This document shows, piece by piece, positions 7,789 to 64,000 of a DNA stretch of 64,000 nt; the stretch's first letter is position 1, and the number at the start of each line of letters is the position of its first letter. Origin of the DNA: Escherichia phage vB_EcoM-RPN242. Position numbers and translations under genes: made by a program. Location of the stretch: sequence record OL656110.1. One strand, given 5' to 3'. The notes below the pieces were generated by a model. The model was not told the DNA's origin. It searched no databases and saw nothing but the letters and a program-made list of their open reading frames with translations.

Positions 7789-7789
7789 G

Positions 7790-9375: not shown

Positions 9376-9414
9376 CACAGTGTATTCCTTCAGTTCACAA
9401 TGTAGGGCTAAATT

Positions 9415-10427: not shown

Positions 10428-10506
10428 GGCGATTCTCCTTATTTCATTGGATGAAATGATAGGCGGCTCACCATGATGAGTAAAGGGTTTCAATAAACTA
10501 TCGTAT

Positions 10507-10956: not shown

Positions 10957-10988
10957 GACACACCTCGGGATATAGGGTTATCCCTTAG

Positions 10989-11147: not shown

Positions 11148-11148
11148 A

Positions 11149-48705: not shown

Positions 48706-51700
48706 TTATGCCAGAGCAATCAAACGGAAATCTTTGAATGACGGCGGTGCTATGCGGTTGCCTCTGACCAGCAGGCGGATCTTCAGACCAACGAAAGGAT
48801 TGGTGCTGTCTACAGTCTTGTCATACTCATATTCGAAGAATGCAGAACCGTCATTGACCAGAGGGGATGTCGGTGTCACAGTTTCCCATGCCACATTATC
48901 CATCTCCTGACCTGCGCGCAGCAGTTTAACCTGCACAGTCATTGAAGACTGAGAAGGTAGCATCGCGCCGAAGTATTGCTTCAGAGTGGTGCAAGGGTTA
49001 TCGAATCCGATATCCTTGGTCACATAGCTGAACACATCTTCAAACGGATCCACACCGTAGGTGTTGAAGATGATAGTGAAATCATCACCGTCGATCATTG
49101 GAGCCGTGTAGACATTACTCTCGTTGCGAGTCATGGTTGCACGAACCTGGAAGTCGCCCACCTGACGATAGATACCTTCCGTCGGCAGAGACACGTCCGT
49201 ATCGGATTCGAACTCAACCCAATCAGAGAATGAGTTGGAGGTCGCATCGCGATAGCGGTATTCCAGTTTCAATACAGATCCTTCTAGGGCTGAATTGGTG
49301 ACGCTTGCGTAGAACATGTCTACCAAGTAGTTGCCTAGGAAAGAAGCCGCTTCACCACCAATCTGACCGTCGGAGTCGGCGTTGGAACTCAGAACGAATT
49401 TGAACGTCGTGAACGTCGCATCAGTCACAGTGTGTTGAGCGTTCAGTTGCTCAGGAGTGAAACCGCAACCACCCGTCAACCCAGACAGAGTAACACTTTC
49501 ACCCGCAGTCAGGCCATGCCCCGGAGCGTACACAGTAACAGTTGAAGAACCGTTGACACATTTCACGGTGTTCAGACCCAGAGGGCGGATCTTCGGACCG
49601 ACTTTAGCATCGAAGGTCACGATGTTTGAACCAGCGGAGAAGTTACAGCGATACACACGGAACTTCATATCGGCAGTCTGGTTTGGAGTCCAGGTCGTAC
49701 CATTTGAAGATGTGAAGAACACGCCAGTGTACGGCTGTTTGGCAATGAACTCGTTGGTCAGCAAGTTCTTCTTACCCATCTCTGCGATGTATGCGTTGTA
49801 GTCCTGAGTGTTGGCCAAGAGAACAATCGCGAACTCAGTCTGCGCCTGCAGATACACAGGATAATCAAACTTGAACATCGTCGGCACAGAAGAGTCTGTG
49901 GAGATGGAAACTTCTGATGGATTCAGAGTCTTACGAGTGACGACAGTCGTCGCTGGCAGACCATTGCTCATCTCACGGATTTCCAGAGTGATCGGGATAT
50001 CACGGGACTTGGTAGAGAAGAACACTTCAATACCTTCGATGTATTCGCCGCCGATATTGGTGGCAACCATGAAGGACTGGGCGATAGGATCTTTCCACTT
50101 CGCGACTTCAACCGTCTCTGTTTTGTTTTCCGTAGACTTGGTCGCAGTGTATCCCAGGACGCGAGTGTTGACATAAGTCTTCTGGATGCCCTGTTTCTTG
50201 CCGAAGGACTTATGAACAGCCTCGGCATTGGTCAGGGTATCATCAGCAGACTTGCTATCCACAGGACTGTCAGTCAGACGGAAGACGTTGTCGCCCGTGT
50301 TAAACTTGATAGTCTCGTTCTGAGGAACCGCAAACACACCTTTGATGTTACCGTTGGCATCAGTGTTCAACGCACCACCCAGTACACCACCGTTTGGGGT
50401 ACAGTACGCGCTCACATCACGCCCAGAGAAGAACGGATACACACGAGTAAATGGACGCAGGCCTGTGGCTTCGAAGTTGATGTTCGTTTTGCGCATGTAT
50501 GGGATAACCTGCGTTTCAACGATCTGCTCGCCAGTCAGGGTAGTGGTCGTCTTGTCGGTGTACGTGTACGTGGTGACGTCACGGGTAGACACAGTCGTGC
50601 GGTAGCGATAGCCCCACCATACACCACCTGCACCATGCGGTTCCCACACACGCTCAGACACAGACACAGTACGCCATGTGCCATACACAGAACCTTCTTT
50701 GATCGCACCACGGGTGTTGATCGTTTCGTTGACCACACGTGGGGTGACATAGTAGTTCTCAAACCAGTAATCAGTAGTTGGGTTCAGCTTCAAGAAACCT
50801 TCCCAGTTGAACACCGCATACGGGTTCACGTTGATGGTCGTGGTTGCATAGTCCTGGCGGACAGAGATCTCACGGGTGTAGTTGCATACAACCATGCCAT
50901 CCTGAACGTTGTTCCAACCGACTGGCGTCAGGTCAATCGCGTTCTGCTGAACAAACGGGCGTAGGCGACCATTGTCAGTGTCGATTGAACCCACCCAGTC
51001 TGCAGACAAATCGTCGATCAGACGGAAGTCTTTGAACGGGTCTGCTGCGATACCGTTCTTGAAGCGCGGGTTGCCAGTAATTGGATCGAACACCTGTTGT
51101 GACATCGCCGAGGATTCCAGCTGAGACAGTGAGGTGTAATATTCGACATTGGAGATACGGGTCTCCAGTTTACCGATATCGCGCATCGTGTAGCGGCGGT
51201 TGTCGATAGTACGAATCTGGATGTCGTCAATGTTGGCCGTGTATGGTGGGATCATCAATTCATACAGGCGCATGCCGTTGTCTGGGATCGCAGGGGAAGC
51301 CAGGTTGTTGGAACTCACACCACGAGCAACGTTGAACACGCCGTTGTCTGCCAGATACACAGCATCAATACGAGGCAGATAGTACTCTGCATCTAGGATG
51401 ATCGCGGTGTTCGGGCGAACCATGTCCGTGTCAGACGCTCCGCTGGTGATCTTGGGACGGAAGTCCAGACTGTCGGCCAACCCATACACAGTACCAGAAC
51501 TGGATGAAACATAGTTCGGGATGTCTGGGTAGTTGATGGACGAATAGGAGTCCGCTGTGAAGAAATCACCAGAGCTGTGAGCGAAATACTGATACACCAC
51601 CGTGAACGTCCCTGAAATGGCTCCTGTGGACGATATGAGGTTAGAAAGGTAGTATGCAGCATCACGCTGACCGCCGTCCAGAGTGAAGTTAGAGGTGACG

Positions 51701-53544
51701 TCAGCGCCATTTGCGTTCTTCACGCTGATCAGCTTGTAACCATCATGGTTCCCAAGTTGTGCGCTGGCCGCCGCAGTAAACGTCACAGTCTCGGTGACTT
51801 CGGTAACAGTCTTGGTCTTGATCGTCGCTGTGGTGCGGACCATCAATGCCAACAGGTTGATAGACTGGTTGGCGTACCCCGCGCCCAGGGAAATCTGTAG
51901 TGCTGAACCAACCGGAGTACCAGCCAGGGACAGTCCCGAAGAGATATCAAACTGAGCTGCAGTGCCATCTGCCTTCGCTGCGGAGTACAGTGAAAACTCA
52001 GGGCTGAAGCTGTAACCCAGAGGAGCAGAAATTGAGCCTGCACCAGCGGCGTTCAACGTGATCTTGTTTGACCGCAGGACAGTGTAGTTGATGTCGATGG
52101 TGCCTGTAGGTGCTAGAGTCTTCACACCAAATACAGGCAGAGGGAAGATCAGGTCAATCGCCGAACTCTGGCTGAACTGATTGGACTCCAGTTCGCAAGA
52201 GAACATCGTTGTACCGCTTTCTTCATAAGCGACTTTGGTCACCGTGCCCATGTCCCCAGTCACAACCAGGTCGCGCATATACAGACGGAATTCAGTACCA
52301 GAGCGCTCTGCCGAAATCAACAGGGCGGTGGCCTGCACATCGCTGGATGCGTTCAGGAACTTGTAGCGGATTGTGCGGGAGACAACCGGAACCCCTTTGG
52401 AGTTCTTGGACACCAGATAGTTTCCAGTCGAAACAGCCACAGGGTTGTTGTTCAGGATATCAGTGTCACGGGCTTTGTCAATTATGACCAGCTCTTCGCC
52501 GAGGTTTTCGATACGACGACCACGAACGTAGGAAATGCCTGGCTTCATAACCGCCACGAATTTGCTTTCATCACCGCCTTCAGCCGGAGTGTAAACGCCG
52601 CCGTTGTTGTTCTGTTTCAGATGTTCACGCAGGTCGATCTGGTGAGTAGAGACGTTGTAGTCACCATTGGTCTCATAGGTACGCTGAGCCATGGCGTCTT
52701 CGAGGATGTTGTACGTTGACTGGGTGACCATGGACTGAATGCGACCGTCTTTCACCTTCGCCAGTTCGACGAAGTCGGCCACTTCTTCATCATAACCGTA
52801 GCGAGACAACACGAGGTCGACGCGCAGGCGATGCGCACCAGGGGCTTTAGAGTTCGGAGTACCCTGAGCATTGGAGAACAGACTTTCATCTTCTGCTTCG
52901 GTCACGATTGTTTCTGTAACTTTGAAGCCAATGCGGTGAGATGTAGAGTTCGATGCGTTGTCTACGATCAGAGTGGCTGGTTCAACATCCAGGAACATAC
53001 CACGAACGAAATAAACACCCTTTGTCATGCGAGCGACAATCGAACCACCAACAGTATCGGCCACACCATAGCCGACACGGATGAAGTTATCGTTCACGTC
53101 ATAGGTGTTGAAATATAGATTGTCGCCAGCTTCGAAACCGTCTGAACTACCACTTTCAGTCATCTCTAAGATGGCATACATTGTATCTGGCTCAGCTGGA
53201 TAACGTTCCAAGGACAGGACGCGTGCTTTCGCATTGTTGTCCTTGCCCAGAACATAGAGTTCGGAGATACCTTCCAGATCAGTGAACTCACTACCACCAG
53301 CCAGAGTGAACTTCATGGACACAGCAGTGTTGGTGATCGTTAGGCCGCCGGGGATAACCATTGAACCGTCTTTGAACAGATGGTTGCCAAGTTTCTCCAG
53401 TTGATCCTGGAAGATGGTCTGCATCTGGTTCAGTTCACGCGTCTGAACTTTGATAGGTGCCGGACGGAATAGGATGCGCGAAAAACGCTTCTCTGGATTC
53501 CAGTCATCCCAATATGGGCGGCGGTTGAGGTTCATTTCTTGCAT
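48706..53544 (-). CDS. large tail/baseplate-associated structural protein (1612 aa)
   Basis: Very long ORF; start trimmed to the ATG with SD GGAG (MQEMNLN...); CTAAATAT motif 35 nt upstream; lies upstream of the tailspike cluster. Confidence 0.7.
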   Translation of the reverse strand: MQEMNLNRRPYWDDWNPEKRFSRILFRPAPIKVQTRELNQMQTIFQDQLEKLGNHLFKDGSMVIPGGLTITNTAVSMKFTLAGGSEFTDLEGISELYVLGKDNNAKARVLSLERYPAEPDTMYAILEMTESGSSDGFEAGDNLYFNTYDVNDNFIRVGYGVADTVGGSIVARMTKGVYFVRGMFLDVEPATLIVDNASNSTSHRIGFKVTETIVTEAEDESLFSNAQGTPNSKAPGAHRLRVDLVLSRYGYDEEVADFVELAKVKDGRIQSMVTQSTYNILEDAMAQRTYETNGDYNVSTHQIDLREHLKQNNNGGVYTPAEGGDESKFVAVMKPGISYVRGRRIENLGEELVIIDKARDTDILNNNPVAVSTGNYLVSKNSKGVPVVSRTIRYKFLNASSDVQATALLISAERSGTEFRLYMRDLVVTGDMGTVTKVAYEESGTTMFSCELESNQFSQSSAIDLIFPLPVFGVKTLAPTGTIDINYTVLRSNKITLNAAGAGSISAPLGYSFSPEFSLYSAAKADGTAAQFDISSGLSLAGTPVGSALQISLGAGYANQSINLLALMVRTTATIKTKTVTEVTETVTFTAAASAQLGNHDGYKLISVKNANGADVTSNFTLDGGQRDAAYYLSNLISSTGAISGTFTVVYQYFAHSSGDFFTADSYSSINYPDIPNYVSSSSGTVYGLADSLDFRPKITSGASDTDMVRPNTAIILDAEYYLPRIDAVYLADNGVFNVARGVSSNNLASPAIPDNGMRLYELMIPPYTANIDDIQIRTIDNRRYTMRDIGKLETRISNVEYYTSLSQLESSAMSQQVFDPITGNPRFKNGIAADPFKDFRLIDDLSADWVGSIDTDNGRLRPFVQQNAIDLTPVGWNNVQDGMVVCNYTREISVRQDYATTTINVNPYAVFNWEGFLKLNPTTDYWFENYYVTPRVVNETINTRGAIKEGSVYGTWRTVSVSERVWEPHGAGGVWWGYRYRTTVSTRDVTTYTYTDKTTTTLTGEQIVETQVIPYMRKTNINFEATGLRPFTRVYPFFSGRDVSAYCTPNGGVLGGALNTDANGNIKGVFAVPQNETIKFNTGDNVFRLTDSPVDSKSADDTLTNAEAVHKSFGKKQGIQKTYVNTRVLGYTATKSTENKTETVEVAKWKDPIAQSFMVATNIGGEYIEGIEVFFSTKSRDIPITLEIREMSNGLPATTVVTRKTLNPSEVSISTDSSVPTMFKFDYPVYLQAQTEFAIVLLANTQDYNAYIAEMGKKNLLTNEFIAKQPYTGVFFTSSNGTTWTPNQTADMKFRVYRCNFSAGSNIVTFDAKVGPKIRPLGLNTVKCVNGSSTVTVYAPGHGLTAGESVTLSGLTGGCGFTPEQLNAQHTVTDATFTTFKFVLSSNADSDGQIGGEAASFLGNYLVDMFYASVTNSALEGSVLKLEYRYRDATSNSFSDWVEFESDTDVSLPTEGIYRQVGDFQVRATMTRNESNVYTAPMIDGDDFTIIFNTYGVDPFEDVFSYVTKDIGFDNPCTTLKQYFGAMLPSQSSMTVQVKLLRAGQEMDNVAWETVTPTSPLVNDGSAFFEYEYDKTVDSTNPFVGLKIRLLVRGNRIAPPSFKDFRLIALA

Positions 53545-53578
53545 TTTGATGCTCCATCGATAGGTGCCATTATAGAGA

Positions 53579-53585
53579 TATTTAG
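53579..53585 (-). promoter_or_regulatory. late-promoter-like motif CTAAATAT upstream of 1612-aa tail protein gene
   Basis: About 35 nt upstream of ATG 53544. Confidence 0.45.
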
Positions 53586-53947
53586 TATACAACCAACCGA
53601 GGAATAGAAAGAAATAAGCCCGAAGGGGCTTTGATTATCTTTCTGTGGTTATGGTCATGGATTCAAGACCTCCGCATTCTTCAGGAACTATTGCAGGGGT
53701 GCTGGTACAGCCAGGGAATGGAGAACGCAAACAAGGCGAACCAATGGAACCACAGTAGTAGGTTCAGATGCTAGTGTTAAGGTACAGGGTACAGACATTG
53801 CCAACAGAGATAACGTATTAGCCACTTACACACTTGGTTCGACAGACCCTTTCATGGTAGAAGGTATTCAATTGGGTATGTTTAATATCTCTGGGCAAGT
53901 AATCACCTTAACAGCAGTATCAATTAGGGTAATGCAAACAGTAAATT

Positions 53948-53978
53948 CTATATAAGAAAAGACCCCAAATGGGGTCTT
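53948..53978 (-). terminator. intrinsic terminator after tailspike 1
   Basis: AAGACCCCA/TGGGGTCTT hairpin followed on the minus strand by TTTTCTTATATAG. Confidence 0.6.
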
Positions 53979-53995
53979 AGTTTTACAGTTATAAG

Positions 53996-56221
53996 TCACG
54001 CTTCTGGCGAGGGGATAGTAAACCAATCGGACGCTGTTCCTGTTGTAGTGCCTTTATGCCTCCAGCCACTAACAGTTCTTTTTACCGTAGGGCTATCCTG
54101 CCAACCTGTTGCCGGGAGAAAGAAATTCCTCACTGGGGCGGGGTTTAACGCTCCAGTAGCTGGCGTGGCGGTTCCAGTCTGAGATGATACGAAGGTGGTT
54201 ACTGTTGAGTAATCTATTACGTTATCATCATGAAACGCATTCGTGTATAGATTTGCGGGTGCTGAGTTAACGAAGAATGCCGTAGTAACCCCGCTAACCT
54301 TGTTTCTATATACGTTGTTCCATCTACAGTTACCACCAAGGCGTATACCCTCAGAATCAGAAGCCCCCGCAATGGTGTTACTATCTATGTCACAATATTG
54401 GAAACTTTGAGCTACTAAAAACCGGCAACTATTACGCGTAACCCTGCCGTAAGTAGACGTACCATTGGCATAGTAAACTGTTATATTGCCAGATGTTAAA
54501 CAGTCTTTAATCGAGAAATTGGTCATAGGGCTAGTAAGGTATACACTGCCAGTACCTTTCACTGTAATGTTTATATTTTTTCTAACTGTCAGGGTGTATG
54601 CGGGCGCGCTATACATACTGACTATATACCCGTTCGCCCCTGTATTTACAGGGACATTTGCATCCACTGTCACATAATCACAGTCCTTAATTAATATCGC
54701 AGCGGTTGTTTGAGCGCCAGTCTTTACGAATCTAATAGACGGGTTTGTGATGGTAAAGTTCTGGCATTGCTCCATAAAGATAACGCCTGATACTTGATCG
54801 TCTGCCGCCAGCGAGTCTACAACAATACGCTGAGCACCAAATGCCCCCATAACCCCATACTTTCCGCCTTTAATATAATCAGCATGGGTGTTGCAGTCGA
54901 AGCATTTTGCACCAAAATATATACCTCCGTTGTTGGCCGTAGGTTTTAGGGTGTTATGGGATGTACGGATGTTACGGCAGCCAGCATAAGATATTATTTG
55001 CGCATCCCCACCGGTCCCTCCAATGTGGGTCGTACCTGTAACAGTACAATCTGTAGATCCGTAACCAAAAAATATATTACCATTTCCGACACGCCCGGTA
55101 TGGGTAGTGTTGTGGTACACCACACCGTACGCGTTATCATGCCTTGAACCGCCATTTCCATTATAATCAAAAACAGTACCATGGAACTCTATAAGCGAAG
55201 CCCCCACAGATTGGTACATGTAGCTAGACCCTGACGCAGAATTTTTTAAGATTCCCCCGATGAACTTAGTAGCGTTGCCTTTTATAAGATAAATAACCGA
55301 ATTGGTGGTAGTTAGGTCCCACGGTAAAGCCGTTGCTAAATTTACGGTAGCACCTGATATGGACGAGATTAAAAAAGATTCGCCTTGGTATCCGGTTACA
55401 TCCGGATTCTGTGCGTTGGCAATATACCAAGCGTCACTTGTGTCCTCAGTGCGTATTACCAACGCCCGAGTATACCCAGTTCCTGCCACCTCAGATGTTA
55501 ATGTGATGGACGTTGCTCCGGAAGCCGCAGGGGAAAGCAAGCTGAATTGGCTCTCGCTGACGAAATTAAGAGCATTAGCGGTCAATGATGTCAACCCAGC
55601 ACCGTGACCGAAAGTAAAAATCGTACCTTTTGGTATGTTGACTTGTGAATGGGAAATTGTCATGCCCGGAGGAACAAAAACATTCCCCGAGTTAATGGCT
55701 AACTGTAAACTAGATGCCTCATCAGACCCATCACCGACAACCCCAAAAGCACGCACGTCCCGTAAATTAGGATCTGTCTGCGGCTTCCAGTCAGCGTTAC
55801 CAACTGGGTTAGTTCCTGCGACAATAGTTACAGGTAAGGAACCTAAGTAGGTGTAACCTATGCCATTATAAAATAGTAATTCATTTCTAGTATTCACAAC
55901 TAAACCAGTAGCAAACGAGTCGGATAGGTTCACGAACTCTCTACGTGTAGCAGCCAGTTCCCCCAAATCAACTGTGCCTGCGGAATGAACCAGGACTGCA
56001 TGTTTATTGAGGCTTACGGCAGTGGTTCCTACTGGAAGTACAGGTAATGAGTAAGCACGTTGGGTAGACTTGTCATAGATTACTTTGTAGCCACCCAAGT
56101 CCACTCCCACAGCAAAGTAGACTACTTCATTTTGCTTAACACCAAACTTACGAGCAATGGCTTGCTTATTGGTAAGAATACCAGTAGAGCCTTTACCGCC
56201 TTGTGAGAACATTTCGTTCAT
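53996..56221 (-). CDS. tailspike protein 1 (beta-helix type)
   Basis: 741 aa; N-terminal module NKQAIARKFGVKQNEVVYF...VLVHSAGTVDLGELA is shared with the other tailspikes; C-terminus is repetitive and Gly/Asn/Thr-rich, typical of a parallel beta-helix. Confidence 0.75.
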   Translation of the reverse strand: MNEMFSQGGKGSTGILTNKQAIARKFGVKQNEVVYFAVGVDLGGYKVIYDKSTQRAYSLPVLPVGTTAVSLNKHAVLVHSAGTVDLGELAATRREFVNLSDSFATGLVVNTRNELLFYNGIGYTYLGSLPVTIVAGTNPVGNADWKPQTDPNLRDVRAFGVVGDGSDEASSLQLAINSGNVFVPPGMTISHSQVNIPKGTIFTFGHGAGLTSLTANALNFVSESQFSLLSPAASGATSITLTSEVAGTGYTRALVIRTEDTSDAWYIANAQNPDVTGYQGESFLISSISGATVNLATALPWDLTTTNSVIYLIKGNATKFIGGILKNSASGSSYMYQSVGASLIEFHGTVFDYNGNGGSRHDNAYGVVYHNTTHTGRVGNGNIFFGYGSTDCTVTGTTHIGGTGGDAQIISYAGCRNIRTSHNTLKPTANNGGIYFGAKCFDCNTHADYIKGGKYGVMGAFGAQRIVVDSLAADDQVSGVIFMEQCQNFTITNPSIRFVKTGAQTTAAILIKDCDYVTVDANVPVNTGANGYIVSMYSAPAYTLTVRKNINITVKGTGSVYLTSPMTNFSIKDCLTSGNITVYYANGTSTYGRVTRNSCRFLVAQSFQYCDIDSNTIAGASDSEGIRLGGNCRWNNVYRNKVSGVTTAFFVNSAPANLYTNAFHDDNVIDYSTVTTFVSSQTGTATPATGALNPAPVRNFFLPATGWQDSPTVKRTVSGWRHKGTTTGTASDWFTIPSPEA

Positions 56222-56497
56222 AATGACCTCTTTGTTTTTCTAAGTAAGCCTCCCAACGTGGGGAGGCATGTAAGTAAAGTTATTTACCGATTCTCAATTC
56301 AGCTAACCAACCTAGAATTTGTTTATTGATTCTAGACGGGTAAGCAGCCTCTAACCATGCACATCGGTCTGGTATTAAACCTCACCTTGAACCAGCAGGA
56401 GTAACAAATTCTTTCCATCCTTTCTGTAGAACTCAGGTATACGCTTCTTTAATACCATTATTACCAACAATACTTGCATACACAACAGACACTAAAC

Positions 56498-56530
56498 TCT
56501 ATATAAGAAAAGGTCCCGAATGGGACCTTT
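56498..56530 (-). terminator. intrinsic terminator after tailspike 2
   Basis: AGGTCCC-gaat-GGGACCT hairpin followed on the minus strand by TTTCTTATATAG; the same flanking motif CTATATAAGAAAAG as at 53948. Confidence 0.55.
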
Positions 56531-56539
56531 ATAATAAAA

Positions 56540-58963
56540 TTAAGGGCTAACCCGATACCACCCGTCGTAGCTAATATACAAACGTTTACCGGACACAACT
56601 GCATCAATGCGAAGCGTTTTTTCACCTTCAGTAAAGAACGCTCCTCCAGTGTTCCCGATGTTCATTCGAAAGCTGGCTGGAATATTTCCAGAGGTAAAAC
56701 CGATGTCCCCGTTGTTCACCCCTGTTACTGCTATGTATGCGTAATCCCGCGCGACAGGAAATCCTGTCACAGATATGAACTGACTGGTGCCGGAACTCCA
56801 TTCAATTGTCACATCAAACACACCGAATATATGAGCAAAATCTCCGACATAATTTATGTTATGTACGGTATACTCGCCGTATGATATCACCGCATTGGTG
56901 CCTGATTGAACTGTAATTTCAGGCGAACCGGGGTCATTCGCTAAGAAAGTACGGTCTGGTCTGATTTTGGCGGATGAATTCGCCACCGTTCTGGTAACGT
57001 TGTTGAGCCAACCGGCCTCCACCGGATCCCCATTTCGCGTAGACCTTACAATGTTGTTACGCAATATTGCGTTAAAAAACGTAATATCGGAGATGTAAAT
57101 ATTATGGTGCTGCCCGGCTACGGCCCCGCCAAACAACATCCCATTAGAGTTGTACTCATAAGATACGTTGTTCTCAATGATGCTGTTGCGCGCCACTCCA
57201 TTTAATTCTAGCCATGATATGTTAGACGGGCCTGTGTAATCAGAACCAAGTCTAATACTGGTGTTATTGGTGAATGAGCTATGGTCGAAATTATCCAATC
57301 TCCAGTTAATACCCAGAGTGCCTTCTTGACCATTCCCAGTTACCGTTACCCCTAGCAGGTTCTGTAATATATAGCCATAACACACTCTTGTCCTGTCCGG
57401 ATAATAGTCGTTCCTGTTAGTGTGATCACAGGCATTAGCCTCTATAACAGAGTATTTAAGATCCCGATAGCAATGCCCATAATCACGGCAACTATTACTA
57501 TAGTTAGTAGATATTACGCATGAAGTGCCGTTGTTTATAAATATCCCACCGAGACATGCGGTAACGCGGTTGTTTCCTACTCGCGACGCAAATACAACAG
57601 GGAGAATTAGCCCATACTTGCAATCGTAAATATAGACGTCTTCTATCGTGGCGTCGGATACCACGCCTGCATTTACGATACCAAATTCTACCGCGTGGTT
57701 TTCCGTTGTAGTTTTTGTCCCATGCAGAGTAACCCCTGTGATGACACCGGACCATCTTGAACTACTAGAATCCCCTAAACAAATAACCGCATTCATATCT
57801 GTAGGCAGGGTTCCGGTATATCCTCCAGATAGTGCAGGCGCCGTCACCAGAACTGTAACGGTAGTGGATGTCGTTTTCGTTATAGTAACTGATTCGCGAC
57901 TTCTCCCTATTACTGATACATTCGATGGTAGAGCAAGAGTACTGCTTATTTTATAGTTACCATCCGGGAAATAAACCACGCCTTTTGTGGTGCTGGCATA
58001 AGCTATAGCTGCTTTTATAGCTACCGTATCATCAGTAGCTCCGTCACCAACAGCACCAAAATCTTTAACGTTATAGTAGTCTTTAAAATGGCTATCAATG
58101 GTTCGCTTAATTGCAGAAGAAACACCAGATAAGCCAGAATTTACTAATGTTCCCCCATCAGTAACCATAGCCGTTTTATATACCTGCAACTCATTCTCCA
58201 CTGGAGTTACATCATTGGGTGCAGGGAGCAGGTCAACAACAATCCCACCAGGATTGTATGTTAGTTGGTCACCATTAACGGAAGAAATATATACGTTAGT
58301 AGGCAATGTAGGCAACCCATATGCCTTCTGCTCACTAACAGAATAAATAATCTTCTTACCATTGAGGGACTGAGTAGTATCGGTGCTAAGAATTACTTCA
58401 CTATCTTTAACGTTAGTAGCACGAGCGATTTCTTGAATACTTCGGTCAAACAACGGACTGATATTCGGTTGTTTAACAGACATTTCAGCGACTACCCAAA
58501 CGCCTGCTGTCAGCGCAGTTTGTAAAGACACTTTCCCTGTCGTGCTGTCATAGGAATATTCAATTTCGGGTGTTTTGTACTCACCACCGATATAAAGAGA
58601 TTGGACTCCATAAGATGTGTAATCAGGAGTGAACTCGGTTTCACCTCCTATAGCCTGAAACTTATAGATTCGAATCCCAGTTTTATAATCTTCTGGAGAC
58701 AGAATCTTATCAAACAGACAGAACACAACGTCACCTTTGGATAATGCGCGTCCGAGATTTAACGTATTTCCATCGATTTCAAAGTTGTCTAACGGAACTT
58801 GCATACCACCGTTGATTGTGACTATACCAGTGACAGGGTAGAAAGGGAGGGAGATAAACTTCTCTCCGCCCGTTGCTGTGTAAGTGTATGGAATCTGGTG
58901 CGGAGCTGTTACGACCGCTCCAAAGATGCTCTCGACGTTTCTGGTCATTTGAAAATACCCCAT
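56540..58963 (-). CDS. tailspike protein 2 with extended N-terminal anchor and pectate-lyase-like beta-helix
   Basis: 807 aa; an N-terminal region of about 200 aa precedes the shared ARATNVKDSEV module; YNVKDFGAVGDGATDDT is the pectate-lyase-superfamily signature. Confidence 0.8.
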   Translation of the reverse strand: MGYFQMTRNVESIFGAVVTAPHQIPYTYTATGGEKFISLPFYPVTGIVTINGGMQVPLDNFEIDGNTLNLGRALSKGDVVFCLFDKILSPEDYKTGIRIYKFQAIGGETEFTPDYTSYGVQSLYIGGEYKTPEIEYSYDSTTGKVSLQTALTAGVWVVAEMSVKQPNISPLFDRSIQEIARATNVKDSEVILSTDTTQSLNGKKIIYSVSEQKAYGLPTLPTNVYISSVNGDQLTYNPGGIVVDLLPAPNDVTPVENELQVYKTAMVTDGGTLVNSGLSGVSSAIKRTIDSHFKDYYNVKDFGAVGDGATDDTVAIKAAIAYASTTKGVVYFPDGNYKISSTLALPSNVSVIGRSRESVTITKTTSTTVTVLVTAPALSGGYTGTLPTDMNAVICLGDSSSSRWSGVITGVTLHGTKTTTENHAVEFGIVNAGVVSDATIEDVYIYDCKYGLILPVVFASRVGNNRVTACLGGIFINNGTSCVISTNYSNSCRDYGHCYRDLKYSVIEANACDHTNRNDYYPDRTRVCYGYILQNLLGVTVTGNGQEGTLGINWRLDNFDHSSFTNNTSIRLGSDYTGPSNISWLELNGVARNSIIENNVSYEYNSNGMLFGGAVAGQHHNIYISDITFFNAILRNNIVRSTRNGDPVEAGWLNNVTRTVANSSAKIRPDRTFLANDPGSPEITVQSGTNAVISYGEYTVHNINYVGDFAHIFGVFDVTIEWSSGTSQFISVTGFPVARDYAYIAVTGVNNGDIGFTSGNIPASFRMNIGNTGGAFFTEGEKTLRIDAVVSGKRLYISYDGWYRVSP

Positions 58964-58984
58964 AAAGGATTTGCCAATATGGGG

Positions 58985-58991
58985 TATTTAG
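58985..58991 (-). promoter_or_regulatory. late-promoter-like motif CTAAATACCCC upstream of tailspike 2
   Basis: Part of a conserved cassette repeated at 61647. Confidence 0.45.
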
Positions 58992-59014
58992 TCTGAACTA
59001 ATAAATTTATAAAC

Positions 59015-59044
59015 AAATGTATAGAGAAACCCCGCCGAAGCGGG
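59015..59044 (-). terminator. intrinsic terminator after tailspike 3
   Basis: CCCCGC-cgaa-GCGGGG hairpin, the same core as at 34187 and 61693; T-rich on both sides. Confidence 0.6.
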
Positions 59045-59066
59045 GCTAGTTTTTATTTGTGGTGTG

Positions 59067-61616
59067 TCAATTGAGTTTTGATATCTCTACAGTTATACCG
59101 AATACGTTATTCGGTCTACTTGTGGTTGTAGCTATAGTTAGCTCAAAGAAATGCGCGTTTATATCTGGTGACTGTGTGTATCCCGCAGAATTAGTTAATG
59201 TTACATTGAGTGATATGTCCGAATCTGTTACGCCGTTTATGCGAATTTCATTCACAGGTCCTGATAGCGACGCGGCGGAAGTTGCACCTATCTTATGATT
59301 TACCAGGTACGTCTTCTCAATATAAGCAACGGATCCCCCATTATTATATGAAGAGCACGACTTAACTTTTACCAGTAGGTTTTGCGATTCTAATGTTCCA
59401 TAGTTATCAAAAATCTTTAAAACTTTGTTAGCAGATGCACCAGAAATGCTTCCACAGTTCACTTCCCATAATGTAGTTCTATTCGCATTCGGTGCGTTCT
59501 CATACATGTAGAAACTACCATCTGGAATTACCCTGTTGTTTATTAATGTTTTCAGATTTCCGCAGTTACCTATTAGTCTCACGTGGGCATTGATGTTTGT
59601 TAATGTTACTGTTTTTATTTTTGATTCTGTGTTTGCGCACCTAATAGAACCACCCATGCAGTTAATATTTTCGTAATAGACATTACCAGCTTGCCACGGT
59701 AACGCGAAAATATCGTCCGCCCGGTTTTTATAATTGAGCGCAACATTAGCAGCAATCCAGTCTCGGTGCATAGAAGAATCACCAGTAAATGTGACGATAC
59801 CTATTTGAGGGTCTTCTGCTGGGGTTGTGCCCAAACTGGCAACTATATTGATATCTGTCAGCTCACCACCAAGACATCTTATATTTGGCATATCATATTC
59901 TTCGGTGGCAAATACGTTACGCCATTTAGCATCAAAACCAGCGTGCGAGTCCATCGTGGCGAAGTTATTATAACCGAAGCACTTTTTAACCTCGAACTTG
60001 TTGAACCATGTTGTTGGGGAGGCAGCATGTCTACAGAATGATGCTGTGATGCTATCAACAACTGTATCGTAAGTGCCCGCCGCAGGGCTGATAGGATACT
60101 GACACCTATTAGCAACTACATTGCCAATCCTTGGCATATAGCAAGCTATTAATAAGTACGAGGAACCACCACTGGTTTCCACGTCACCAGAAAAGACTGG
60201 CATATAAAAACCACGGAACCATGAAGATGAAACCCCAAATGATGCGGTGCCTATATTAACAAAAGATGAGTTATCACGGTTGTTAAAGTGCTCCATCTTG
60301 AAGTTATTGAAAATCAACCTTACCGGTTTGTACCTGTTAACCTTAACGTTGTTTGCTACTAGATGATCGAATAGCGCTGGCCTATCAACTTTCATATTAG
60401 AACCAGATTCACGCTCTGCAATAAACAACTCCCTTGAGTTAAAATTCCACTGAGTCTCGTACGTCTTGTTGTCCTCTATATAAATCAAATCACCCTCTAC
60501 AGCCCCAGCCACCCGCGCAACTGTGGAGCCGCTTACCATATCAGCTAGAAGTGAAGACTGAATCTCGGTTGATGACAGGTGCATTTCCACCCCATCAGAG
60601 GCCCCGAACAGCTTTATGCCAGACCAATCAACAACTAAGTTTTTATCAATCGACAATAGTTCTATATTACTGGTTACAGTAACCTCACCGACTGACCTGA
60701 AGTATCCACGGCACCCGGATGTGTAAGCTACAGTCAGGAATTCAGATATAGTCTGGCCTGATACAGACCCTCCAGCGGTTATGCCGAAATCATCTCCGCA
60801 AATCGCGCTTATAGGGGTAAATGATGTTAATGCCGGCTGGGAAGCAGACCTGACCCACATTGTACCGCCGGTTGAGCATACCGAATCTACAGGTAACTCT
60901 GCCTCCGTGGACGCAATCATCTCGTAAAAAGAGGAGAAATGTTTGTATATTCCAGCAACTTTGTAACCACCAGTTATAGGATTAGTCCCAGCGACAACTA
61001 TACCAGCAGGACCGGAGAACGCCTTACCAGTGCGTTCTTGTAGTAGCACATCGTTGGCGTTCACTAGTGTACCGCCCGACTCAAAGCTACCATCTACTAG
61101 ATTATAGCCTGCTGTTGCATAGCTACGGCGCAACGCCTCACGGGTCTGTGTACTTGTGAACTGATTGGAGCACCTAATATAACCACTCCCTGGAAGAGTA
61201 GGGTCTGTGCCAGCAGGAACTACTTTAGGTAATGCCCCATCCCAACGGTACTTCCCATCTGTAAAGACAACTAATTCATTCTTGGTATTAACTGTTACAC
61301 CGGTATCAAATGACCCAGACAATGTGACGTACTCTTCACGAGATACAGCCAATTCCCCGAGATCTACAGAACCTGCTGAATGTACCAGGATTGCCTGTTC
61401 GTTCAGACTTATCGCAGTCGTTCCTGAAACAATACCTGAAGGAAGAGAATAAGCCCGTTGGGTAGACTCATCATAAATTACTTTAAATCCACTGAGATCA
61501 ATACCAGCAGTGAAATAAATGACTTCGTCTTCTTTGACACCGAAATTTCGAGCGATAGATTGTTTGTTAACTTCTATGGAAGTGGAGCCGCGTGGTTGAT
61601 TGAATTGAGAAATCAT
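59067..61616 (-). CDS. tailspike protein 3
   Basis: 849 aa; N-terminus VNKQSIARNFGVKEDEVIYF and a 60-aa block nearly identical to tailspike 4. Confidence 0.75.
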   Translation of the reverse strand: MISQFNQPRGSTSIEVNKQSIARNFGVKEDEVIYFTAGIDLSGFKVIYDESTQRAYSLPSGIVSGTTAISLNEQAILVHSAGSVDLGELAVSREEYVTLSGSFDTGVTVNTKNELVVFTDGKYRWDGALPKVVPAGTDPTLPGSGYIRCSNQFTSTQTREALRRSYATAGYNLVDGSFESGGTLVNANDVLLQERTGKAFSGPAGIVVAGTNPITGGYKVAGIYKHFSSFYEMIASTEAELPVDSVCSTGGTMWVRSASQPALTSFTPISAICGDDFGITAGGSVSGQTISEFLTVAYTSGCRGYFRSVGEVTVTSNIELLSIDKNLVVDWSGIKLFGASDGVEMHLSSTEIQSSLLADMVSGSTVARVAGAVEGDLIYIEDNKTYETQWNFNSRELFIAERESGSNMKVDRPALFDHLVANNVKVNRYKPVRLIFNNFKMEHFNNRDNSSFVNIGTASFGVSSSWFRGFYMPVFSGDVETSGGSSYLLIACYMPRIGNVVANRCQYPISPAAGTYDTVVDSITASFCRHAASPTTWFNKFEVKKCFGYNNFATMDSHAGFDAKWRNVFATEEYDMPNIRCLGGELTDINIVASLGTTPAEDPQIGIVTFTGDSSMHRDWIAANVALNYKNRADDIFALPWQAGNVYYENINCMGGSIRCANTESKIKTVTLTNINAHVRLIGNCGNLKTLINNRVIPDGSFYMYENAPNANRTTLWEVNCGSISGASANKVLKIFDNYGTLESQNLLVKVKSCSSYNNGGSVAYIEKTYLVNHKIGATSAASLSGPVNEIRINGVTDSDISLNVTLTNSAGYTQSPDINAHFFELTIATTTSRPNNVFGITVEISKLN
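61239..61385 (-). repeat. near-identical coding repeat in tailspike 3 N-terminal module
   Basis: About 145 bp with only a few mismatches against 63519-63665; encodes the shared VLVHSAGSVDLGELAVSREEYVTLSGSFDTGVTVNTKNELVVFTDGKYRWDG block. Confidence 0.8.
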
Positions 61617-61646
61617 GATAATACCCCAAGAATGACCAATATGGGG

Positions 61647-61653
61647 TATTTAG
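61647..61653 (-). promoter_or_regulatory. late-promoter-like motif CTAAATACCCC upstream of tailspike 3
   Basis: Part of a conserved cassette repeated at 58985. Confidence 0.45.
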
Positions 61654-61675
61654 TCTGAACTAATAAATTTATGAA

Positions 61676-61710
61676 CAAAGTTATAATAAGAACCCCGCCG
61701 AAGCGGGGTT
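61676..61710 (-). terminator. intrinsic terminator after tailspike 4
   Basis: AACCCCGC-cgaa-GCGGGGTT hairpin with T-rich flanks. Confidence 0.6.
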
Positions 61711-61715
61711 TATTG

Positions 61716-64000
61716 TTATGATGCATTTGCTGATTTGTTTAAATACCATCCGTAGTTCGTTTTTATTAACTCTACAATCTCCCCGTTTGTCTTGTATTTT
61801 GTCTTCCCGGTTTCTGTATTATACATAATTCTGTCGGTGACAGAGACGCCGGACGCTTGTTTTGAAAGCGTCACAACAGTGTTGCCGGATAACGGAAGTA
61901 TTGATATCCTTTGTCCGATATATCCACCAGTGATTGACGTTATCACTGATCCATTACTTCCAGCGTCGAGATAAAATACGTCGCAAGAGTTGGCATCTAA
62001 TGTAGTTGTTTCAGTTGTTAGCGTTTTCGTTGGCGACGAAATACCAAGCACAAATGATGAACCGTTCCATGTATATTCTTTGCCGTCAGCAAGACCAATC
62101 ACTCGCTCGTTGATTCTTAAATCGGGTGCAAAAGTCTTTCTAATGTCAACAATTTTAATAGTGCCACAAAACGGGACAGGGATAATCACGTTACCTGCAA
62201 GCCTGTTAATAGTGTAAATTGAATTGCTGATCGTCCACTGTCTACCGTTCCACATACTCATAAATGAACCAGAAGATAGAAGCACGGTTGAACTGTAACC
62301 TGCTTCCAAAGCATTTGTGTCTGTTATCATGCCGCGATCAATAGGATTGCTAAAATCGTCAGAGCAGTCGAATACTCTAATGTTTGCACGTCCTTCATAA
62401 TTACCTGATTGACCAACAGGTGCGATAACAAAGAGATAATCCTTATCAAAACCATAATCAGGGCCAACGCGTAAGAACGACGCCATACAGTTAGTGGTAG
62501 GGAACTGTCCTTTTACAACCCACTTTCCACTAGAATCTTGCATCAATAGCTTTTGAATGGCTATTTTGTACGGCTTAGTGGTCGTATCTGCTGCGCGCTC
62601 AATGGCAAACGGTGTTCCGTCATAAAAATTTCCGAAACCAATTTCACCGCCAGATGTACCGAGAGTATCGGTATCCGTGTCTTTCCTGACATCTTCACCG
62701 TAGGTGTAGTTACCGCTATCATCAACTGTGATATACCCCTCAACTATTCCGGTAGATAGTTGAGTTAAATAATAATAAGGAATTGCAGGCTTGCCATTTA
62801 TGTACCCGACTTGTGTAGGTGCAATTGATGAGAAGTAAGCACCAGATGGTTTAACCAATGGCGTAATATCAACAGGGGTGCTCCATGTATTGCCACCATC
62901 CTTTGATATGACATATTCAATAGTTGATGTTGTGTCAGGGTTAGTTCCTTGTTGTGCATGCCCCCACCCAGTAATCCCCTTCATTGATGTAAAGAAACAA
63001 TACAAATATCCATCAAGATTATTTAGGAATAGTACCGTTTCAGAAGTGGCATATCCTGGCCCTTTGTTAACAACAGTTCCAGTGGTCCAGTTCACACCGT
63101 TATCATCAGATATTAGGTAATCAATGTGCATAGGTGTGCCGTCCTGTCCTGGGTCAATATTAGCACCATCCTTCACTGTGTAGATACATACCACCCGCCC
63201 ACTTGGAAGTGACACCGCTTTTGGTGCAAAGTTAAATACATTCTCCACATAAGTTTGCAACTGTAAGCGCAAATTATTGTTAAAGCTTCTTGAGTATTTA
63301 TTCCCAAAAGCGAAATTAAATCTATTTTTTGCAATTGATTGCCTTTTGTAAAGCTCAAAATCTTTATCCTTGACTGCTCCGTTAACTAAATCAACTCCGT
63401 CATCATCAGCCAGGTCACTTCTTAAACTTACATCACCAACACTTAACCATTTTCCTGCACCAGTACCACCAGCACTCCCTGGGGTTGAGCCAGCAGAAAC
63501 CTCTTTAGGCAATTCCCCATCCCAGCGATACTTCCCATCTGTAAAGACAACTAATTCATTCTTGGTATTAACTGTTACACCGGTATCAAATGACCCGGAC
63601 AATGTGACGTACTCTTCACGAGATACAGCCAATTCCCCGAGATCTACAGAACCCGCTGAATGCACAAGTACAGCGGAAGGACTAAGACTGACAGCAGTAG
63701 TACCAGGGGCAATATCAGCAGGCAAGGGATAAGCCCTTTGCGTCTCCTTGTCATAAATAACTTTATACCCACTTAACGCAGCACCAACACTAAAATAAAC
63801 GACCTCTGTATCTTTAACATTGGTTACACGAGCAACTTCCCGCAAAGTATAATCAATTTGATTGTAGATGTTTGGTGTTCCATTGATAATTACAACAACT
63901 TCATCCTCTGGTTCCAGTTCTTGCGCAAGAGTGATTTTACTGGTTGATGGATCGAATGTGAATCCCAGATTTTTATACTGGCGACTTCCGTTTATATCAA
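61716..64000 (-). CDS. tailspike protein 4 with BNR/Asp-box repeats, N-terminus beyond window edge
   Basis: Frame remains open upstream of the track start (a TTG) to position 64000; the upstream translation matches the tailspike 2 linker. Two Asp-boxes, SDDNGVNWT and SKDGGNTWS. Confidence 0.75.
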   Translation of the reverse strand, partial: DINGSRQYKNLGFTFDPSTSKITLAQELEPEDEVVVIINGTPNIYNQIDYTLREVARVTNVKDTEVVYFSVGAALSGYKVIYDKETQRAYPLPADIAPGTTAVSLSPSAVLVHSAGSVDLGELAVSREEYVTLSGSFDTGVTVNTKNELVVFTDGKYRWDGELPKEVSAGSTPGSAGGTGAGKWLSVGDVSLRSDLADDDGVDLVNGAVKDKDFELYKRQSIAKNRFNFAFGNKYSRSFNNNLRLQLQTYVENVFNFAPKAVSLPSGRVVCIYTVKDGANIDPGQDGTPMHIDYLISDDNGVNWTTGTVVNKGPGYATSETVLFLNNLDGYLYCFFTSMKGITGWGHAQQGTNPDTTSTIEYVISKDGGNTWSTPVDITPLVKPSGAYFSSIAPTQVGYINGKPAIPYYYLTQLSTGIVEGYITVDDSGNYTYGEDVRKDTDTDTLGTSGGEIGFGNFYDGTPFAIERAADTTTKPYKIAIQKLLMQDSSGKWVVKGQFPTTNCMASFLRVGPDYGFDKDYLFVIAPVGQSGNYEGRANIRVFDCSDDFSNPIDRGMITDTNALEAGYSSTVLLSSGSFMSMWNGRQWTISNSIYTINRLAGNVIIPVPFCGTIKIVDIRKTFAPDLRINERVIGLADGKEYTWNGSSFVLGISSPTKTLTTETTTLDANSCDVFYLDAGSNGSVITSITGGYIGQRISILPLSGNTVVTLSKQASGVSVTDRIMYNTETGKTKYKTNGEIVELIKTNYGWYLNKSANAS
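63519..63665 (-). repeat. near-identical coding repeat in tailspike 4 N-terminal module
   Basis: Pairs with 61239-61385. Confidence 0.8.

Follow-up and report, generated by a model that had tools for sequence, protein, structure and literature searches.

The segment 53996-64000 of the window, by which we mean the whole 64,000-nucleotide stretch of Escherichia phage vB_EcoM-RPN242 (OL656110.1) that was analysed, is very probably the standard tsp1-tsp4 tailspike cluster of an Agtrevirus-type (CBA120/ViI-type) E. coli phage; and, on sequence evidence, a stretch of about 134 bp in its tsp3 gene is a recent tsp4-to-tsp3 gene conversion that is missing in the closest relative. The four-spike layout, a patch of nucleotide identity and the role of this patch in recombination have already been published for Agtrevirus (Sørensen 2021, 2023, 2024; PMC8432352, PMC10791037, PMC11414711). 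Finding the cluster is a correct rediscovery of what is mostly known, the uncharacterised TSP4 propeller being its sole mildly new part, and what we add to the earlier, qualitative reports is the apparent polarity (tsp4 to tsp3), extent (~134 bp, D2) and recency (absent from PC3) of the patch.

Four minus-strand ORFs lie in a row (Table 1), with 741, 807 and 849 codons and, for the last, at least 761 and an open end at the window edge, just as the preliminary description had them in strand and lengths; we take them for the tsp1, tsp2, tsp3 and tsp4 genes of a phage in the Aglimvirinae (Ackermannviridae). The backbone shares 96-99% DNA identity with Agtrevirus genomes, and the four genes, all in the same orientation, stand directly upstream of a VriC-like ORF, whose A221 orthologue is annotated as a virulence-associated VriC protein. 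The published position of the cluster is 'between VriC and baseplate wedge genes' (PMC10791037). The baseplate side falls outside the window; at the syntenic CBA120 locus, there are two conserved ORFs followed by the gp6 baseplate-wedge gene, and ORFs of matching size occupy this position in YX22.

Compared with crystal structures, the N-terminal modules hit CBA120 TSP1, TSP2, TSP3 and TSP4 (E 1e-37 to 1e-127), and the layout that had been likened to the multi-spike systems of ViI/CBA120-like phages is that of a phage of this very family. An N-terminal module had been ascribed to all four proteins: this holds for TSP1, TSP3 and TSP4, which have about 140 aa in common at 54-70% amino-acid identity, but TSP2 lacks the full module, sharing a weaker stretch (30-44%) with the other three and a gp10-like stretch (35%) with TSP4. 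As in the CBA120 type, nothing precedes the D1-D2 head in TSP1 and TSP3 (TSP3 aligning with 5w6f/6nw9 from residue 1, E 1.3e-71), and TSP2 consists of XD2-XD3 and a single D1, its residues 6-257 aligning with residues 1-253 of full-length CBA120 TSP2 (6w4q, E 2.9e-127). A search for PF18668 (D2) in TSP2 found none, and CBA120 TSP2 likewise has D1 without D2, as published. About 293 N-terminal residues of TSP4 lie outside the window, as judged from PHROG profile positions (start 294) and from a 1053-aa UniProt entry that is 99% identical to its C-terminal part; the full length is about 1053 aa, that of both this entry and the PC3 orthologue. In the CBA120 type, TSP4 has an N-terminal anchor and gp10-like domains XD1-XD3 ahead of D1-D2; of these, the window covers the last 45 residues of XD3 and D1-D2.

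Table 1. Features of the tailspike cluster and its flanks (positions in the window; aa, residues of the protein).
Feature	Position	Residues	Strand	Remarks
VriC-like ORF	48706..53592		-	1628 aa; downstream boundary of the tsp cluster
Truncated 3' ORF fragment	53698..53955		+	85 codons, without start codon; from a 208-aa ORF
Terminator-like hairpin after tsp1	53959..53978		-	in 57-nt repeat D2
tsp1	53996..56221		-	ORF, 741 aa
tsp1 receptor-binding domain	53996-55759	155-741	-	starts with DVRAFGVVGDGSDE; FGVVGDGSDE at 55718-55747
tsp1 D1-D2 head	55760-56221	1 to ~154	-	match to CBA120 TSP1 (4oj5), E 7.5e-53
Paralogous hairpin after tsp2	56509-56530			also in 57-nt repeat D2
tsp2	56540..58963		-	ORF, 807 aa
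tsp2 predicted pectate-lyase-like beta-helix, PF12708	57488-58075	297-492	-	Pfam E 1.8e-19
DFGAVGDGATDDT motif in tsp2	58025-58063	301-313	-	within the PF12708 match
tsp2 gp10-like XD2-XD3 and D1		1 to ~257	-	match to CBA120 TSP2 (6w4q)
Second cassette copy, upstream of tsp2	58964-59066			direct repeats D3 (94%), D6 (86%)
tsp3	59067..61616		-	ORF, 849 aa
tsp3 predicted beta-helix receptor-binding domain	59070-60869	250-849	-	
tsp3 third D2-like module	60963-61163	152-218	-	
tsp3 D1-D2 head		1-139	-	match to 5w6f/6nw9
Putative gene-conversion tract, tsp3 D2	61250..61383		-	between GTTAISL (61404-61424) and YRWDG (61236-61250) motifs
tsp4-tsp3 intergenic cassette	61617..61715		-	GC hairpin CCCCGCTTCGGCGGGG, then CATAAATTTATTAGTTCAGACTAAATACCCCATATTGG
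tsp4, 3' part	61716..64000		-	frame open to 63998; 760 aa and stop codon; start outside window
tsp4 C-terminal beta domain	61719-62201		-	
tsp4 sialidase-type six-bladed propeller	~62202-63269		-	
Asp-box SKDGGNTW in tsp4	62883-62906		-	canonical
Asp-box SDDNGVNW in tsp4	63087-63110		-	canonical
tsp4 D1-D2 head	~63420-63863		-	match to 5w6h, E 1.7e-66
Donor-type tract copy, tsp4 D2	63530..63663		-	2280 bp from tsp3 copy
tsp4 end of XD3	63864-63998		-	last 45 XD3 residues; 7rej residues 294-338, E 7e-18

A near-identical DNA segment had been reported in two of the genes, and the copies (61239-61385 and 63519-63665), which cover head domain D2, indeed agree at 142 of 147 positions, with one mismatch in the core (61249-61374) and only ~65-70% identity in the homologous sequence on their flanks. 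Inside the tract, the window tsp3 differs from the window tsp4 at 3 of 134 positions and from PC3 tsp3 at 23 of 134; outside it, the corresponding counts are 65 of 208 and 5 of 208. PC3 lacks the tsp4-type tract in its tsp3 (identity to the window 91.8% over 61201-61540 and 94.4% over 61100-61620), and its own tsp3 and tsp4 differ at 25 of the 134 tract positions. Over the first 160 codons of tsp3, 25 codons differ between the window and PC3, 23 synonymously and 2 non-synonymously, and all but one of them (24/25) are within codons 74-121; the first 150 nt show 0 differences. Because the tsp3 genes of outgroups (YX22, CBA120) bear the PC3-type bases in the tract, its polarity is set as tsp4 to tsp3: a non-reciprocal exchange, after the split from PC3/PH4, probably wrote tsp4-type sequence over the part of tsp3 that encodes D2. 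The conversion would also have created a direct repeat with a spacing of 2.28 kb, which could promote more swaps or deletions.

It is possible, but doubtful, that the tract was instead imported from a co-infecting relative with this allele of D2 in its tsp3 or tsp4. Exchange between phages is clear in this cluster, with receptor-binding domains common to Gamaleyavirus, Sashavirus and AV126, and one of the three residual differences fits the PC3 tsp4 allele and not the window tsp4. However, the closest donor among the sequences compared is the window tsp4 itself, the tsp4 of A221 differing from the window tsp3 tract at 11 of 134 positions, and the two copies are just 2.28 kb apart in a type of phage that probably replicates in a recombination-dependent manner.

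An error of assembly or polishing, by which tsp4 reads were put on tsp3, is highly improbable; an assembly artefact had also been considered in the preliminary description. It would fit with the strings spanning the tract junctions, which searches of metagenome contigs in IMG/VR and JGI did not find; this leaves the patch known from one sequence and its junctions in no other public contig, and with our having found no record of the exact window TSP3 protein; but if the true sequence were PC3-like, the tract would have diverged by ~19% (25/134), too much for k-mer collapse or read mis-mapping. Moreover, the patch is in frame with tsp3-specific sequence on either side, one of its residual differences from tsp4 is an allele of PC3 tsp4, and the same kind of identity patch has been reported in independent Agtrevirus genomes. 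Finally, that it was selection, acting on the protein or else on some RNA or DNA element, and not recombination that maintained the identity has next to no probability: the D2 amino acids of TSP3 and TSP4 are near-identical in PC3 too, indicating strong protein constraint, but PC3 encodes this same protein with the 25 nucleotide differences noted above where the window has 3, the tract edges are sharp, and selection at the protein level cannot homogenise synonymous sites, at which nearly all of the changes between the window and PC3 tsp3 occur.

Conversion of tsp3 by tsp4 agrees with the earlier suggestion that the repeat is a recombination substrate, as do the breakpoints of the receptor-binding domains shared with other phages: these (55761, 61210 and 63524) fall at the edge of the D2 module, and 63524, delimiting the tsp4 domain common to nithesis, abuts the donor-type tract. 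In Agtrevirus, the identity patch in tsp1/3/4 was reported and read as a site of recombination between receptor-binding domains (Sørensen 2023, PMC10791037), and the GTTAVSL motif was described (Sørensen 2021, PMC8432352). Published experiments have also shown tsp4/tsp5 recombination and tsp3 deletion.

The receptor-binding-domain DNA of tsp1 is 98.6% identical to that of phage A221 and, with its breakpoint at 55761, 95.5% identical to that of nithesis, a Gamaleyavirus (G7C-like podovirus), to which the tsp4 domain is 95.8% identical; at the protein level, the TSP4 domain has 98.8% identity to this Gamaleyavirus and 83% to a Sashavirus protein. Both domains are also found after N-termini of the P22 head-binding, T7 fibre and PF18668 kinds, and the phage lineages or adaptor types in which the TSP4 module circulates number five or more (Agtrevirus, Gamaleyavirus, Sashavirus, T7-type and P22-type adaptors). 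The TSP3 domain recurs at ~92% identity in AV126 and Serratia phage KKP_3264, and that of TSP2, among isolated phages, in PC3/PH4 only (99.1%). The conserved head, D2 above all, would serve as a homology arm by which paralogues, and also unrelated phages, exchange receptor-binding domains.

The identity of tsp1 to nithesis is continuous from 53681 to 55761 and takes in the ORF fragment between tsp1 and the VriC-like gene. This ORF, downstream of the gp63.1-like gene, is intact at 208 aa beside the homologous tailspike gene of nithesis, whereas the window has only the fragment, which is 96% identical in amino acids to residues 124-208 (L005:4430-5056) and where only a 33-aa ORF can be called; we read it as the scar of the DNA block that brought in the tsp1 receptor-binding domain. 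Terminator-like hairpins were detected in the intergenic cassettes.

The C-terminal parts of the four proteins diverge and are predicted to be mutually distinct, glycan-degrading receptor-binding enzymes. When their folds were checked, as the preliminary description had proposed, TSP1, TSP2 and TSP3 came out as beta-helices and TSP4 as a beta-propeller. The pectate-lyase-type signature that the preliminary description had pointed out, DFGAVGDGATDDT, is in TSP2, inside its PF12708 match. For TSP1, it is profile homology to the TSP3 domain (hhalign probability 98.4%, E 5e-15) that suggests a beta-helix distantly related to that of TSP3. The BNR/Asp-box repeats mentioned for the last ORF correspond to two canonical Asp-boxes, and although the Pfam BNR_2 score of TSP4 (27.7 bits) is below the gathering threshold (31.4), the fold evidence for a six-bladed beta-propeller with Asp-boxes, the combination looked for in GH33, is strong.

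Of the sialidase triad, the first Arg, that of (F/Y)RIP, is absent in an HMM alignment to 4fj6: TSP4 reads F-A-P and its relatives Y-A-P, and Ala15 and Pro16 at this position are invariant among relatives. Since Phe or Tyr stands in place of this Arg, the propeller may be no sialidase, or not enzymatic at all. Invariant motifs (AIER, GRxNxR) are candidates for the other two Arg of the triad, the second and the third, with no solved sialidase aligning there; an invariant Asp (NIDPGQ), the candidate acid/base residue, aligns with the Asp in the 'SSVDL' stretch of 4fj6, at the canonical +25 offset. The GGE...ER and GYSS motifs, where the Tyr-Glu nucleophile pair may lie, are also invariant, and their spacing would suit a sialidase; an alignment search gave no match. 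Tentatively, the domain might represent an uncharacterised class of phage depolymerase, a GH33-like propeller without the first triad Arg that apparently keeps the Asp, Glu, Tyr and two Arg, carries a C-terminal beta domain and perhaps targets an acidic sugar of an E. coli O- or K-antigen, e.g., a nonulosonic acid or Kdo. A comparison of the receptor-domain DNA of TSP4 with 5,426 complete E. coli genomes gave no match.

If they behave like their CBA120 homologues, the four spikes, each a trimer, would assemble as one branched receptor-binding complex at the baseplate. TSP4 would provide the attachment, by means of an anchor at its N-terminus and its gp10-like XD domains, TSP2 would dock to TSP4 by XD2, the D1-D2 head of TSP1 to XD3 of TSP4, and the head of TSP3 to XD3 of TSP2. 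The model draws on CBA120 biochemistry (Chao 2022, PMC8825819) and on electron microscopy of AV101 (PMC10791037). Homology and prediction suggest that each C-terminal domain, whether one of the three right-handed beta-helices or the sialidase-type propeller, binds or cleaves a different polysaccharide; with a distinct enzyme on each spike, as many as four surface glycans could thus be open to a single virion.

Among known systems, PC3 and PH4 (ON184125/6) have the same gene order and three complete genes of the same lengths (741, 807 and 849 aa), and the AV101 paper states that vB_EcoM-RPN242 has the same cluster as PC3/PH4 (PMC10791037). The two have 97-98.5% DNA identity (for PC3, across 53000-64000) and all four receptor-binding domains in common with the window, but protein identity in the TSP3 domain reaches just 94%, and the tsp3-tsp2 intergenic region is ~170 nt shorter in the window (103 vs. 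275 nt). AV101 agrees with the window in its genus-level backbone (97.1% over 23.6 kb) and in the identity-patch phenomenon, but has other receptor-binding domains.

Kuttervirus CBA120 (Plattner 2019; Chao 2022, PMC8825819) shares the architecture, with D1-D2 in TSP1 and TSP3, XD2-XD3-D1 in TSP2 and XD (in the window, the end of XD3) plus D1-D2 in TSP4; its genes adjoin VriC, as in the window, and the N-terminal DNA is 81-85% identical. Its four receptor-binding domains, however, are all unlike those of the window, whose TSP3 has an extra D2-like module and whose TSP4 ends in a sialidase-type propeller where that of CBA120 has a beta-helix. The phage nithesis (PV252060), a G7C-like N4 phage with the gp63.1/gp66 two-spike system, has spikes that bear the TSP1 and TSP4 receptor-binding domains of the window on homologous D1/D2 heads. 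The window head matches 4qnl, which we take to be G7C gp63.1, at E 7e-52. Yet nithesis is a podovirus with two spikes as opposed to four, and between its N-terminal adaptors and those of the window, identity reaches just 68-86%.

By position and N-terminal homology, the four ORFs, which are present and co-oriented as a preliminary description of this region had reported, are the tailspike genes tsp1, tsp2, tsp3 and tsp4 (see table), and the VriC-like gene marks the boundary of the tailspike cluster in this phage family (PMC10791037). The 10-kb region, together with the adjoining 23.6 kb, is 96-99% identical to phages of the Agtrevirus group (Ackermannviridae, Aglimvirinae). In direct comparison with the window, Escherichia phage PC3 is 98.5% identical over 53000-59045 and 97.0% identical over 59030-64000; its record labels tsp1 'tail spike protein', tsp2 'tail spike protein 2', tsp3 'tail spike 3' and tsp4 'hypothetical protein'. 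Because the first match of PHROG profiles to TSP4 lies at profile position 294, and its homologues (the PC3 tsp4 product and a UniProt entry, C-terminal part 99% identical to TSP4) are 1053 aa long, some 293 N-terminal residues of TSP4 lie beyond the window. At its start (58948-58963), the tsp2 ORF runs five codons further upstream than the position matching Met1 of TSP2 from the Kuttervirus CBA120 (6w4q), and the second Met, at 58948, may be the true start. The cluster is a real feature, correctly read at the outset and ordinary for its family.

Features of the tailspike region, in window coordinates
Feature	Position	Strand	Description
VriC-like gene	48706-53592		1628-aa ORF, downstream of tsp cluster
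ORF remnant	53698-53955	plus	no start codon; last 85 codons of 208-aa ORF (phrog_17779), within 403-nt tsp1-VriC intergenic region
Second hairpin, after tsp1	53935-53991		hairpin + TTCTTATATAGA
tsp1	53996-56221	minus	741-aa ORF
Second hairpin, after tsp2	56486-56542		hairpin + TTCTTATATAGA
tsp2	56540-58963	minus	807-aa ORF
Cassette upstream of tsp2	58964-59066		GC hairpin CCCCGCTTCGGCGGGG + [C/T]ATAAATTTATTAGTTCAGACTAAATACCCCATATTGG
tsp3	59067-61616	minus	849-aa ORF
YRWDG motif	61236-61250		end of D2, tract flank
GTTAISL motif	61404-61424		end of D1, tract flank
Cassette upstream of tsp3	61617-61715		GC hairpin CCCCGCTTCGGCGGGG + [C/T]ATAAATTTATTAGTTCAGACTAAATACCCCATATTGG
tsp4, partial	from 61716, open to last complete codon of window	minus	760 aa + stop codon

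Two of these genes had been said to carry a near-identical DNA segment, and as first delimited this segment is indeed identical at 142 of 147 positions. A repeat finder places it in a family of three (61201-61388; 63481-63668, 93%; and 55806-55993, 61%), and its core, 61249-61374, contains one mismatch, with homologous DNA on either side about 65-70% identical. In a joint alignment of the tsp3 and tsp4 coding DNA for head domains D1 and D2, covering the window, PC3, YX22, CBA120 and A221, the tract corresponds to columns 49-182 (window 61250-61383). Within the window, tsp3 and tsp4 differ at 3/134 sites inside the tract and 65/208 outside it; the corresponding values are 25/134 and 65/208 for PC3, 33/134 and 63/208 for YX22, and 45/134 and 78/208 for CBA120. 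Between the tsp3 genes of the window and PC3 there are 23/134 differences inside the tract and 5/208 outside. Across the half of the tract nearer to D1, tsp3 of YX22 and of CBA120 carries the PC3-type bases, so the tsp3 state in the window is derived. Over the first 160 codons, window and PC3 tsp3 differ in 25, 23 of them synonymously; all but one of the 25 lie between codons 74 and 121, and no difference occurs in the first 150 nt of the gene. The D2 protein sequence is nearly alike in TSP3 and TSP4 in both the window and PC3, and only synonymous sites have been homogenised between the two D2 copies. Judged from these alignments, we regard the near-identical segment as a tsp4-to-tsp3 gene-conversion tract: a clean natural case of a short tract between tailspike paralogues, dated against a sister phage that is 97-98% identical.

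The tract may alternatively have been imported from a co-infecting relative. The closest available donor is the window's own tsp4, with 3 differences versus 11 for A221 tsp4; the exact recombinant TSP3 protein was not found in the protein collection, nor were exact recombinant junction strings in IMG/VR or in JGI metagenomes, and the best phage record for the recombinant tsp3 is PC3, at 94.4%. Assembly collapse, which would also yield an identical tract, is unlikely, since a PC3-like genome would have ~19% divergence there. Selection on the protein is ruled out as an explanation for the identical DNA, because only synonymous sites were homogenised. The putative conversion tract lies between the GTTAISL and YRWDG motifs and so spans D2 without reaching D1, which fits a role for D2 as an interchangeable spacer and for D1 as a partner-specific, paralogue-specific docking surface.

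The preliminary description saw in such shared DNA a recombination substrate for swapping receptor-binding domains (i.e., the C-terminal part of each spike), and steps in identity with other phages at this junction (55761, 61210 and 63524) bear it out. Breakpoints were obtained by mapping the window onto the DNA of relatives, and the steps are sharp. Taken together with its 3' flank (53681-55761), the tsp1 receptor-binding domain matches nithesis, a Gamaleyavirus (G7C-like podovirus) with two spikes, at 95.5% identity and A221 at 98.6%, whereas the tsp1 head reaches only about 86% against each of them. For the tsp4 receptor-binding domain (61691-63524), identity to the second nithesis spike is 95.8%, and the breakpoint of this domain at 63524 falls within the YRWDG codons at the end of the conversion tract; the similarity of tsp3 to YX22 and CBA120 ends at 61210. 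At the protein level, the TSP4 domain has 83% identity to a Sashavirus protein, and in metagenomic proteins both it and the TSP1 domain occur behind PF18668, T7-fibre (PF03906) or P22 head-binding (PF09008) N-termini. Escherichia phage AV126 and Serratia phage KKP_3264 both have the TSP3 domain, with identity of about 92%, and the TSP2 domain is so far seen only in PC3 and PH4, the closest relatives.

The 85-codon remnant just downstream of tsp1 has 96% protein identity to an ORF of nithesis, where the full 208-aa frame survives and converges on the homologous tailspike gene. This arrangement points to a G7C-like phage as the source from which the Agtrevirus lineage acquired the tsp1 receptor-binding block, in which case the remnant would be a scar of the transfer. 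TSP3 has, in addition, a third D2-like unit (residues 152-218; 60963-61163; QFTSTQTREALRRSYATAGYNLVDGSFESGGTLVNANDVLLQERTGKAFSGPAG...), with 78-79% identity to two spikes compared directly, one of them bearing a P22-type head-binding domain. In a homology search with TSP3, many further spikes match this short unit, with 45-90% identity over ~10% of the query, and it may serve as another junction module, more universal than the first.

Variation in the cluster comes from indels of whole genes and of intergenic DNA in addition to domain swaps. Phage A221 (positions 5442-11478 of its locus, L004) has three tsp genes and lacks tsp3, of which a search in A221 found no remnants; between its genes, A221 is more like PC3, where the longer tsp3-tsp2 interval (L001 9064-9340) exceeds that of the window by ~170 nt. 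A GC-rich hairpin follows each tsp gene, and the cassettes upstream of tsp2 and tsp3 are 86-94% identical, with a TATAAAT-like element whose likeness to a T4-type late promoter is only a resemblance; a sigma-70 promoter scan was uninformative (19 sites vs 23.7 expected). The repeated cassettes could be per-gene terminator and promoter units, and they may give additional homology arms through which whole genes are exchanged or lost.

That the C-terminal domains might be neither beta-helix nor propeller was checked for this cluster and is not what we found. The pectate-lyase-type signature reported earlier, DFGAVGDGATDDT, lies at aa 301-313 of the 807-aa TSP2, which has a pectate-lyase-like match at aa 297-492 (PF12708, E 1.8e-19). 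The TSP3 receptor-binding domain has no Pfam match; full-length homologues number only six (72-91% identity), an exhaustive HMMER search yields 69 distant relatives, and PF12708 is present in 10 of the 43 TSP3 relatives that were aligned. The TSP1 receptor-binding domain, which opens with DVRAFGVVGDGSDE, shows no BLAST-level similarity to that of TSP3 (53999-55759 vs 59070-60869), and profile alignment with the TSP3 family (hhalign) gives a probability of 98.4% and E 5e-15 over 242 columns. Because a TSP1 receptor-domain profile matched PDB and Pfam in the N-terminal head region only, we infer its fold by way of TSP3: most likely, it is the same kind of beta-helix. Given this profile homology, two of the four 'different' domains would belong to one beta-helix superfamily.

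As had been described, TSP4 carries BNR/Asp-box repeats, seen as two canonical Asp-boxes (SDDNGVNW and SKDGGNTW). In the HMM alignment register, the invariant Asp of NIDPGQ aligns with the Asp of the sialidase 'SSVDL' stretch and lies at the canonical offset of 25 residues from the RIP position. That position reads F-A-P in TSP4 and Y-A-P in relatives, so the sialidase triad lacks its first arginine. The other invariant motifs (GGEIGF...AIER, GRxNxR and GYSS) have what we take to be the spacing of the sialidase Glu, Arg2, Arg3 and Tyr; because a profile of propeller blades 4-6 had no match among PDB sequences even at E 10, we can only infer this mapping. We file the domain under the sialidase fold and, given the missing arginine and the tentative catalytic mapping, not as a sialidase proper. 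The receptor-domain DNA has no match in 5,426 complete E. coli genomes, searched for lysogens that would point to a target serotype. Behind the propeller, the C-terminal ~160 aa (61719-62201) are modelled at moderate confidence as an all-beta domain (pLDDT about 55-85), which could serve trimerisation or act as a lectin or intramolecular chaperone. Propeller spikes are not new to the Ackermannviridae. The TSP4 propeller is a candidate enzyme type found in more than one phage family, and this uncharacterised domain is the only part of the cluster with some potential.

Because the cluster determines which surface glycans of E. coli are usable, it matters for host-range prediction and therapeutic phage engineering. 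The scientific gain is nevertheless small, since both the layout of the cluster and its recombination hotspot were known before. Both the initial observation and its interpretation are correct and already published for this phage group: tsp clusters of 14 Agtrevirus phages, PC3, PH4 and RPN242 among them, are compared in the AV101 paper (PMC10791037); the GTTAVSL motif was defined in the 2021 subtype paper, which also documented that TSP4 has receptor-binding domains in common with TSP1 or TSP3 (PMC8432352); and the 2024 engineering paper reported, in the laboratory, tsp4/tsp5 recombination and tsp3 deletion with tsp4 truncation (PMC11414711). Added here are the direction of one natural conversion event, how far it extends and how recent it is; a fold assigned to each of the four receptor-binding domains in the cluster; and the finding that two domains are in common with one G7C-like podovirus.

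The N-terminal module said to be common to all four spikes is clear in three and faint in the fourth: about 140 aa are shared by TSP1, TSP3 and TSP4 (BLASTP identity 59% for TSP1/TSP3, 54% for TSP1/TSP4 and 70% for TSP3/TSP4), and TSP2 has a weaker stretch in common with these (30-44%) and another with TSP4 (35%). The comparison with ViI/CBA120-like branched spikes stands, as the modules match the CBA120 structures: TSP1 residues 1-155 align to CBA120 TSP1 (4oj5, E 7.5e-53), TSP2 residues 6-257 to residues 1-253 of full-length TSP2 (6w4q, E 2.9e-127), and TSP3 residues 1-143 to TSP3 (5w6f/6nw9, E 1.3e-71). For the TSP4 fragment, the alignment begins in the last part of the CBA120 TSP4 N-terminal structure (7rej residues 294-338, E 7e-18) and continues in the TSP4 head (5w6h, E 1.7e-66). 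PF18668 (Tail_spike_N, the D2 domain) is matched by TSP3 and TSP4. This is the layout published for CBA120 TSP1-4, with D1 in all four spikes, D2 in TSP1, TSP3 and TSP4, and T4-gp10-like XD domains in front of TSP2 and TSP4 (PMC8432352, PMC8825819). In the CBA120 complex, TSP4 is the baseplate anchor, XD2 of TSP2 binds TSP4, the TSP1 head sits on XD3 of TSP4, and the TSP3 head sits on XD3 of TSP2 in the TSP2:TSP4 complex (PMC8825819); by homology, the spikes encoded here would assemble into a branched complex of the same type.
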